64,000 nt of DNA from Octopus vulgaris (Eukaryota): assembly GCA_951406725.2 (NCBI GenBank), contig OX597843.1, positions 7,998,001 through 8,062,000 of the forward strand, in the 5' to 3' direction. The position numbers and the translations under genes are program-made. This document shows, one piece after another, positions 5,436 through 35,714 of this stretch. The notes beneath the pieces are model-generated. The model made no database searches. It was not told the DNA's origin and worked only from the letters and a program-made list of their open reading frames with translations. How positions within the stretch are numbered: the stretch's first letter is position 1; every line of letters starts with the position of its first letter.

Positions 5436-5625
5436 GACCGTTAGCTCCTACACGCATTTTTTTCTCTCCGTGTTTCTTTTCTGTGTATCTTTCTGTCAAA
5501 GAGCGTAGGCTCGAAACGTAAAGACTTGTTCTATTTCTATTCTTGAGCGCTATACTGATACAATTGTTTGTTTGTACTCCACCTGCCATCGTATTTTGTT
5601 TATTTTCGTAAACCCTCCCGTTATA
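5436..5625 (+). mobile_element. Second copy of the family H5 repeat, with degenerate hammerhead at 5488-5524
   Basis: Homologous to ~33292-33440; TCTTT-CTGTCAA-A-GAGCGTAGGCTC-GAAA-CGTA-AAGA; ends in (TA)n. Confidence 0.6.
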
Positions 5626-32960: not shown

Positions 32961-32967
<7 letters not shown>

Positions 32968-33044
32968 GTATATATTTATATATATTTATAAAAAAAGAAT
33001 TTTGAAAATGCCACTATATAAGATAAATTTAAATTTTCTTAGAG

Positions 33045-33092
33045 ATTTTACATGTTTCGGTTCTTCTTGAAAAAACGAACCTTATCAAAAAC
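33045..33092 (-). ncRNA. Hammerhead with U3-A8 core variant (family H4, left arm)
   Basis: GUUU-UUGAUAA-GGUUC...GAACC-GAAA-CAUG-UA-AAAU; stem III is the palindrome ACAUGU. Confidence 0.7.
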
Positions 33093-33153
33093 ATTTTCAA
33101 AAGTTAAGTGTAATAAAAAAGTTCATAATTGTTTTAAAATAACTTTTTAAAAT

Positions 33154-33202
33154 ATTTTTGATAAGGTTCGTTTTTTTCAAGAAGAACCGAAACATGTAAA
33201 AT
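33154..33202 (+). ncRNA. Hammerhead with U3-A8 core variant (family H4, right arm)
   Basis: ATTT-TTGATAA-GGTTC...GAACC-GAAA-CATG-TA-AAAT. Confidence 0.75.
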
Positions 33203-33303
33203 CTCTAAGAAAATTAAAATTTATCTTATATAGTGGCGTTTTCAAACTTCTTTTTTTATAAATATATACCCACTCGTATACGATCTACACTCTTTTCTGT
33301 GTA

Positions 33304-33341
33304 TCTTTCTGTTGAAGAGCGTAGGCTCGAAACGTAAAAGA
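33304..33341 (+). ncRNA. Minimal hammerhead-like motif (family H5; A6 replaced by U)
   Basis: TCTTT-CTGTTGA-A-GAGC GTAG GCTC-GAAA-CG-TA-AAAGA; stems I and II perfect; core deviates at position 6. Confidence 0.55.
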
Positions 33342-33437
33342 CTTGTTTTATTTATATTCCTGAGCGCCATACTAATACAATTGTTTGTTTGTATTCCACC
33401 TGCCTTCGTCTTGAGTTTATTTTCATAAAGCTTCCCG

Positions 33438-33484
<47 letters not shown>

Positions 33485-33485
<1 letters not shown>

Positions 33486-33720
33486 TTTATTTAAAAACAG
33501 CAGAAATTTAACAAAAGCTGTTACTCGGAGTTTCACGTTCCCGGCGTCGGACATACCAGAGGTAGTGTCGGACAGTTTTAATAAAACTGTCCGACGAACG
33601 GGGACGTAAAACTCCGAGTAACAGCTTTTGTTAAATTTCTGCTGCTTTAAATAAAGCATATTACTCTACCTCTGGTATTTGAGTACTCTTTTTTTCCACC
33701 TTGTTTCACATTTATGTATT
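33485..33720. mobile_element. Inverted-repeat element with C4-variant hammerheads (family H6)
   Basis: Arms ~33485-33553 and ~33587-33657. Consensus across copies is CTGT-CCGACGA-ACG GGAA CGT-GAAA-CTCYGAG-TA-ACAG; each copy has a core lesion. Central palindrome GTCGGACAGTTTTA-A-TAAAACTGTCCGAC at 33567-33595. Confidence 0.65.
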
Positions 33721-34931: not shown

Positions 34932-35330
34932 CAAGAGAAAAAATTCAGGCAGCTATCTATAAAGCATTCAGTTTTTAAAGAATTTGCTTAACTATATCGG
35001 CGTAGGAGTGGCTGTGTGGTAAGTAGCTTGCTTACCAAACACATGGCACAGAATGTTTTCACCTCAATAGACGGTCATTGATTGGTTGAAATTGCCGAAA
35101 TGCAAGAAATTAAAAACCAAATATCTTACAAACTATAGAATTTTCTCAATAAAGCCAAAAGAAAAAGTTGTTTTATAAACTCATTCTACCAGTATGCGAA
35201 GTTTAAAGTGTTTAGTTACCTAGAAATTATGTTAAAAACTGCCGGTCAAACCGAAAAGATCCGGAATATTGTTAGCTACTGAATATGTGAATGGTGCATT
35301 ATACCAAATAATATTTTTTGATATATTCTA

Positions 35331-35492
35331 GGCGCAGGAGTGACTGTGTGGTAAGTAGCTTGTTTACGAACCACATGGTTCCGGGTTCAGTCCCACTGCG
35401 TGGCACCTTGAGCAAGTGTCTTCTGCTATAGCTTCGGGCCGACCAAATCCTTGTGAGTGAATTTGGTAGACGGAAACTGAAAGAAGCCCGTC

Positions 35493-35555
<63 letters not shown>

Positions 35556-35714
35556 GGAGTGGCTGTGTGGTAAGTAGCTTGCTTACTAACCACATGGTTC
35601 CGGGTTCAGTCCCACAGCGTGACACCTTGGGCAACTGTCTTCTACTATAGCCTCGGGCCGACCAAAGCCTTGTGGGTGGATTTCGTAGACGGAAACTGAA
35701 AGAATCCCGTCGTA

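Follow-up and report, generated by a model that had tools for sequence, protein, structure and literature searches.

Hammerhead ribozymes in which the core pair has changed by covariation from C3-G8 to U3-A8 occur naturally, and such ribozymes have already been found active in vitro (Perreault et al. 2011, PMC3088659). The same variant is known from the Penelope-like elements (PLEs) of Schistosoma, for which about 1,300 matches, pairs of motifs located on opposite strands at distances of 100-700 bp and, in a supplementary alignment, the core UUGAUAA have been reported; a Schistosoma motif showed no activity as a monomer and low activity as a dimer (Cervera and De la Pena 2014, PMC4209133). Among EN+ PLEs, the Neptune and Nematis clades are marked by a CX2-5CxxC linker, and their members combine an RT, a Zn-finger-like linker and, at the C terminus, GIY-YIG with an optional ORF1 and a frameshift, an architecture shared by the element described here; ORF1 is frameshifted in some PLEs (Craig et al. 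2021, PMC8557442). The insertions left by EN+ PLEs likewise resemble those reported below in their 5' truncation, partial tandems, inverted 5'-truncated copies, one-sided tail of 30-40 bp and (TA)n targets (Craig et al. 2021, PMC8557442; Frangieh et al. 2024, PMC11167929). For the PLE of Anolis, it has been described that the enzyme cuts and extends both strands, that two internal RT start sites bound the tail, and that the hammerhead motif is assisted by protein and is not required for insertion in vitro (Frangieh et al. 2024, PMC11167929).

Here we characterize an inverted pair of hammerhead-bearing sequences in a stretch of 64,000 nucleotides from Octopus vulgaris (contig OX597843.1), referred to as the window. 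A repeat search of the window identified 32979-33118 and 33129-33268 as an inverted repeat with 84% identity in an ungapped alignment; when gaps were allowed, 32979-33106 paired with 33140-33268 at 95.3% identity over 129 nt. The repeat is flanked by a long (TACA)n tract on one side and by further repeats on the other. Its arms are asymmetric, the left one extending to 33134 and the right one beginning at 33140 and continuing into a tail. Together with this tail (33140-33291), the right arm is 98% identical to the genomic copy L011, and in full-length copies the tail sequence is found after the 5' pLTR, leading into ORF1. We read the locus, with a probability of about 0.85, as two 5'-truncated 3' ends of a PLE joined head to head, which carry the type I motif of their family with a U3-A8 core, a motif that is likely to cut slowly and only as a dimer. 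The features are compiled in Table 1.

Table 1. Features of the inverted pair and of other hammerhead families in the window
Feature	Position	Strand	Basis or remark
(TA)-rich target closing a long (TACA)n tract	32961-32978	.	
Left arm: 5'-truncated 3' end (pLTR part) of a Penelope-like element, tail-less	32979-33134	-	94% identity to genomic copy L011 over 156 nt
Start of left arm	46 nt upstream of its U3	-	reverse-strand read
Filler at the head-to-head junction, 5 nt	33135-33139	.	gap between both L011 matches
Right arm: 5'-truncated 3' end of the same element; start 18 nt upstream of U3	33140-33268	+	L011 match
PLE tail, first 22-23 nt of about 34; right arm only	33269-33291	+	
Hammerhead motif 1: U3-A8 core, 5-bp stem II, GAAA, ACAUGU palindrome (33050-33055), GUA	33049-33088	-	descriptor scan
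Predicted cut site of motif 1	3' of 33049	-	
Hammerhead motif 2: core 33158-33164, stem II 33165-33188, GAA, palindrome 33192-33197	33158-33198	+	descriptor scan
Predicted cut site of motif 2	3' of 33198	+	
Adjacent 3' end of a second PLE-linked family, interrupting the tail of the right arm	33291-33438	+	
C3-G8, A6U minimal hammerhead of the adjacent family, core CUGUUGA	33309-33336	+	relaxed scan
Second window copy of the A6U family	5475-5621	+	
G3-C8 hammerheads	53677-53713, 54275-54311	-	relaxed scan
G3-C8 family copies	53591-53736, 53961-54106, 54190-54335	-	middle copy damaged
G3-C8 family copy	54598-54680	+	

Scanning both strands of the entire window with a descriptor confirmed what a sequence-only reading of this DNA had described, namely that both arms contain a type I hammerhead with the core UUGAUAA, a GGUUC/GAACC stem II, GAAA, the palindrome ACAUGU and a GUA triplet. 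The features of a type I core, i.e., a Watson-Crick pair at 3:8, GAAA, A15.1-U16.1 and an NUH triplet (GUA), are present in each of them. Stem II comprises 5 bp in both arms and is closed by G10.1-C11.1, a pair found in 25 of the 27 rows of a lineage alignment, with G-U in the L050 subfamily. Stem I, which had been called weak with 4 A-U-rich bp, indeed has 4 bp in the arms; three A-U pairs are conserved across the lineage, and covariation in this stem does not rise above shuffles. With a relaxed descriptor, four perfect cores were found in the window compared to 0.23 per shuffle (30 block shuffles), while cores with one mismatch occurred once compared to 1.27 per shuffle; the Rfam hammerhead models gave no match in the window at gathering score. 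The ACAUGU palindrome is predicted to form a 6-bp duplex (-4.6 kcal/mol), and for the monomer a hammerhead-compatible fold of -4.6 kcal/mol is predicted compared to -6.7 kcal/mol for the MFE structure. The motif resides in the pLTR, has a palindromic stem III and is located at both ends of the tandem copies L043, L050 and L051. As two copies of one family that most likely stem from one insertion event, the arms do not provide independent evidence.

Among the described motifs, the U3-A8 hammerhead of Cercyon from Schistosoma mansoni resembles the one reported here in being of type I, with a short stem I, a palindromic stem III, G10.1-C11.1 and a location in the pLTR; it differs from ours, which lacks the extra nucleotide A9/10.1, has a 6-nt ACAUGU and a longer loop II, and resides in another host on a carrier with a CX2-5CxxC linker (PMC4209133). 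The extra residue that separates position 9 from 10.1, absent here and also in the related elements L197 and L199, is usual but not universal in the minimal hammerheads of PLEs and is missing in some published rows (PMC4209133). The natural U3-A8 hammerheads of Perreault et al. (2011) are not described there as minimal dimer-dependent PLE motifs, whereas the motif here is known from sequence (PMC3088659). Metazoan non-LTR retrozymes share the type I hammerhead and the palindromic stem III, but consist of tandem non-coding units, while the motif here forms the end of a protein-coding PLE (PMC7229834). The motif is real, its U3-A8 variant has already been published, and its carrier belongs to a known class; a literature search returned no paper on this particular PLE family, with incomplete coverage of papers on PLE hammerheads.

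The carrier is, to judge by its linker motif, an EN+ Penelope-like element of the Neptune/Nematis type. When one arm was used as a query against the 2.8-Gb genome, 1382 first-look candidates were retrieved (best identities 92-98%), and the end of a GIY-YIG frame was found upstream of several arm copies. This end, used as a query in turn, yielded 15,333 candidates, with many open frames of about 781 aa. Twenty fetched copies comprise ORF1, ORF2 (RT, CX4CxxC linker, GIY-YIG) and a 3' sequence of 0.5-1 kb at whose end lies the hammerhead region; ORF1 has 479 aa in L048, L050, L051 and L053, and Pfam places RVT_1 and GIY-YIG in one ORF of the family copies L046 and L050. The physical link to the window is provided by L046, in which a 796-aa frame (91% to L050) is joined to a 3' end that shares 90% identity with the window arm, and by L015, in which a GIY-YIG end is joined to a 3' end 96% identical to it. 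The linker reads CGRPNCGIC at residue 647 of the L050 frame, and a CX2-5CxxC linker lies between RT and EN in 117 of 120 listed homologues. A tblastn search of the 64-kb window found no ORF part of the element. Family copies exhibit the traits of EN+ PLEs: 5' truncation, a direct or inverted pLTR, an optional tail and a microsatellite target. In Poseidon of Anolis the ORF begins inside a C3-G8 hammerhead, unlike the situation here, where ORF1 follows the motif after about 140 nt and ORF2 precedes it by 0.5-1 kb (PMC11167929). The idea that UGA-UAA of the core serves as stop codons of an ORF was rejected, as ORF2 ends 0.5-1 kb upstream.

As a separate observation, ORF1 and ORF2 overlap in the -1 frame at a U-UUU-UUA heptamer (L050:1683-1700, with equivalents in L041, L045, L046 and L051), which we take to resemble a slippery site; no strong hairpin is predicted downstream of the heptamer.

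Insight into the origin of the pair came from 96 copies, taken from the first 100 listed of 272 matches to a 27-nt anchor downstream of the ribozyme. An inverted partner lies upstream in 23 of these 96 copies, a tail is present in 27, and (TA)n follows within 110 nt downstream of the anchor in 81. After duplicates had been dropped from 120 loci, there were 28 head-to-head pairs, with spacings of 73-940 nt, and 84 single arms. Exactly one tail is present in 17 of the pairs, none in 11 and two in not a single case, for which we calculate p of about 0.07 if tails were independent. These numbers also bear on the notion that the inverted pair is the terminal repeat of a MITE or DNA transposon with a hammerhead likeness that arose by chance, a view that could draw on the long arms and short spacer, on the ease with which weak stems form in AT-rich sequence and on the lack of an Rfam match at gathering score. 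It is hardly conceivable given that single arms differing in their 5' ends make up most of the copies, that the spacing within pairs varies, that an RT-GIY-YIG element has the arm as its 3' end and that descriptor matches far exceed those in shuffles; the link to the ORF refutes it, and most copies lack fixed terminal inverted repeats at both ends.

The pair is instead most likely the product of one insertion event with priming on both strands. The endonuclease of the element would have cut both strands at the (TA)n tract, reverse transcription would have been primed on each strand, with the end of the pLTR and the end of the tail as start sites on the RNA, and both cDNAs would have stopped early and then been joined at their 5' ends. 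For the whole locus, folding predicts a hairpin of -156.8 kcal/mol on either strand. With the arms on opposite strands, any read-through RNA would be expected to form a hairpin of about 130 bp, leaving the ribozyme inactive, and the locus is likely to be a dead, ordinary PLE insertion whose ribozyme is predicted to be buried in the hairpin of any transcript. That the arms constitute a designed pair instead, such as a sense/antisense switch or an intramolecular dimer, might be suspected from the two intact cores and the presence of both palindromes. We consider this highly improbable, because the two cores, being on opposite strands, cannot share one RNA; furthermore, pairs of this kind arise as a by-product at many loci, with truncation points that are random, and in genomic copies the core positions accumulate mutations as the flanks do.

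The exact U3-A8 pattern has 1410 matches in the genome, compared to none for a reversed control pattern, and these are 1410 out of 1440 matches to a pattern with purines at positions 8-9 and position 3 left free. A base other than A is present at position 8 in 16 matches (12 G, 3 U, 1 C), and U3 is retained in all 16. Of the 96 anchored copies, which were chosen by sequence outside the ribozyme, 80 reach position 3, and they comprise 76 U:A, two C:A, one U:C, one G:A and no C:G. A family consensus of CUGAUGA with both changes private to this locus, which had been named as the outcome that would speak against the motif, is therefore not what the copies contain (0/80 C3-G8). Core columns are about as variable as the flanks in the 96 copies, which is what dead copies would be expected to show. 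A pattern with a shorter stem II, in which the core was partly fixed and position 3 left free, gave 130 matches; the 30 that were fetched were 17 U:A, five U:G, four C:G, three C:A and one A:A. Four of the U:A members adjoin frames 50-76% identical to ORF2, from which it follows that sister families share the core. In these sister families (50-76% aa identity), UUGAUAA, GG/CC and ACAUGU are retained, while loop II and the flanks differ. U3-A8 is thus the family state, fixed in this family and its sister families. A weak hint comes from three records in sequencing-run contigs (four runs, short pieces in two) that match the ribozyme stretch alone, with unlike flanks.

Pair 3:8 is U-A in all rows of the 27-member lineage alignment, so that a covariation test at family level has no power, and the check by family covariation proposed in the sequence-only reading accordingly did not lend the fold any support: 90.2% of cells were paired compared to 89.7% after shuffling, and 163 of 500 shuffles scored as high. 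The same reading had taken the occurrence of three different 3:8 pairs in one window as its strongest internal evidence. U3:A8, G3:C8 and C3:G8 do occur, but the C3:G8 copy has an A6U core, and as the window families are separate repeats, one of them with A6U, the argument from covariation within the window is weaker than had been stated. Across families, pair 3:8 does covary. Among 80 metagenome loci encoding relatives of ORF2 (291,529 nt), 27 matches were found in 24 loci, all 27 with a Watson-Crick pair at 3:8 and all 27 with A6 (20 C:G, five U:A, one G:C and one A:U, some from one family), whereas ten shuffles of this set gave six matches, none with A6. That the pair and A6 have been retained near related elements speaks for selection acting on the catalytic core. 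A scan of 400 kb of unselected genome, in which positions 3, 6 and 8 were free, gave 21 matches, of which 18 were Watson-Crick (13 C:G, seven of them in one tandem array and five with U6, and five U:A), two A:A and one C:A, compared to no match in five shuffles.

Among outside relatives that have a motif, the nearest four (L192, L197, L198 and L199; 44-48% aa) bear C3-G8 and a 6-nt palindrome, which in L197 is ACAUGU; the closest homologues, P0001-P0011 (50-58% identity), fall outside the ribozyme comparison. In a rough tree of 31 query-anchored partial rows, rooted at the midpoint, with no clade test and with L192 and L198 left out, the lineage of the window (support 0.99) is sister to L197+L199, and the remaining U3-A8 cases are placed elsewhere. 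From these sequences we infer that U3-A8 would be a derived compensatory switch from an ancestral C3-G8 that occurred several times.

The fourth Watson-Crick pair, A3-U8, was encountered in a minimal hammerhead motif in a single record (L236:1969-2000), about 80 nt behind a PLE-type GIY-YIG frame; a full-text literature search for 'A3-U8', which may miss reports on core variants, found no paper. The adjacent A6U family, with the consensus CUGUNGA, has 16,898 matches with position 7 free, U6 being present in 96 of the first 100 listed, and two of its copies lie behind PLE-like frames of 27% identity. The G3-C8 family (core GUGAACA, 7-bp stem I, palindrome AAUAUU) has 2409 candidates in the genome that are truncated, inverted and tailed like the U3-A8 family; no ORF was found next to 25 copies.

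Further repeats were noted in passing. The 3'-end insertion at 33487-33700, the third that is inverted, tailed and located at (TA)n, contains a hammerhead-like core, and another copy lies at 49419-49528; both window copies have a core change, and genomic relatives have CCGACGA or CUGAUGA, after which come a short stem, GAAAC and UC, with no palindrome. In L122, L127 and L138, retrozyme-like units of about 360 nt are arrayed in tandem and bear canonical type I hammerheads; they fall into a C3-G8 family and a U3-A8 family that resemble each other only in the ribozyme. Another U3-A8 family at (TA)n, represented by L129 and L140, has UUGAAAA, an extra G, a GUUGC/GCAAC stem II and an AAUU palindrome. 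Three copies of the head of a dispersed repeat, presumably SINE-like, are located at 34993-35046, 35325-35378 and 35544-35597.

For the predicted ribozyme, the best-fitting reading is cutting that is slow or partly dispensable. Two motifs of the source element would pair via ACAUGU into stem III and cut after GUA, probably aided by the protein of the element. The ORF1-containing set comprised 21 copies, one of them without a pLTR match; three of the other 20 begin no more than about 10 nt from the cut (-7, -2 and about +3) and 17 start farther upstream, with the upstream motif uncut in 17 of 20. In the short copies, 5' ends do not cluster at the cut site, where only one of 96 begins (+1), and many of the far-upstream end positions in this set are artefacts due to the subfamily used as reference. 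L048-L054, the subfamily in which intact 781-aa frames are most frequent, carry G10.1-U11.1 and GUU, and their proximal stem I is broken; a distal TA-rich helix is predicted in its place. The exchange A9C recurs in six of 80 copies, and the palindrome-preserving ACGU in ten of 96.

Such observations could also be taken to mean that the element is the same, but that the hammerhead of this lineage is a relic that no longer cuts or is retained only as a signal for protein binding or dimerization. The decayed stems in the subfamily with the most intact ORFs, the recurrent A9C and the absence of 5' ends from the cut site agree with this, as do the A6U core of a nearby family, which numbers at least 16,898 copies, and the finding that ribozyme mutants did not impair insertion in vitro (PMC11167929). 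We nevertheless regard it as rather unlikely, since the core, the G-C closing pair, GAAA, the palindrome and the NUH triplet have been retained between sister families with differing loop II and flanks, and the uniform Watson-Crick pairing and A6 near related elements count against it. Slow cutting remains our preferred reading. A more far-reaching proposal, which is somewhat less probable still and which we put forward only tentatively, is that a whole PLE lineage switched from C3-G8 to U3-A8 and retained the new pair through several families, that the flanking stems decayed in its most successful young subfamily and that PLE hammerheads form a natural, slow-cutting rate series. If this were true, PLE hammerheads, taken together with the G3-C8 and A6U families and the L236 A3-U8 motif, would sample all four Watson-Crick 3:8 pairs, and slow cutting would spare RNA for reverse transcription.

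The family represents a clean case of a compensatory core change that is fixed across a retroelement lineage, and this change can be polarized against C3-G8 relatives bearing the same palindrome. Together, the U3-A8, A6U and G3-C8 families offer ready constructs for the question of whether the hammerheads of PLEs must cut for the elements to spread.
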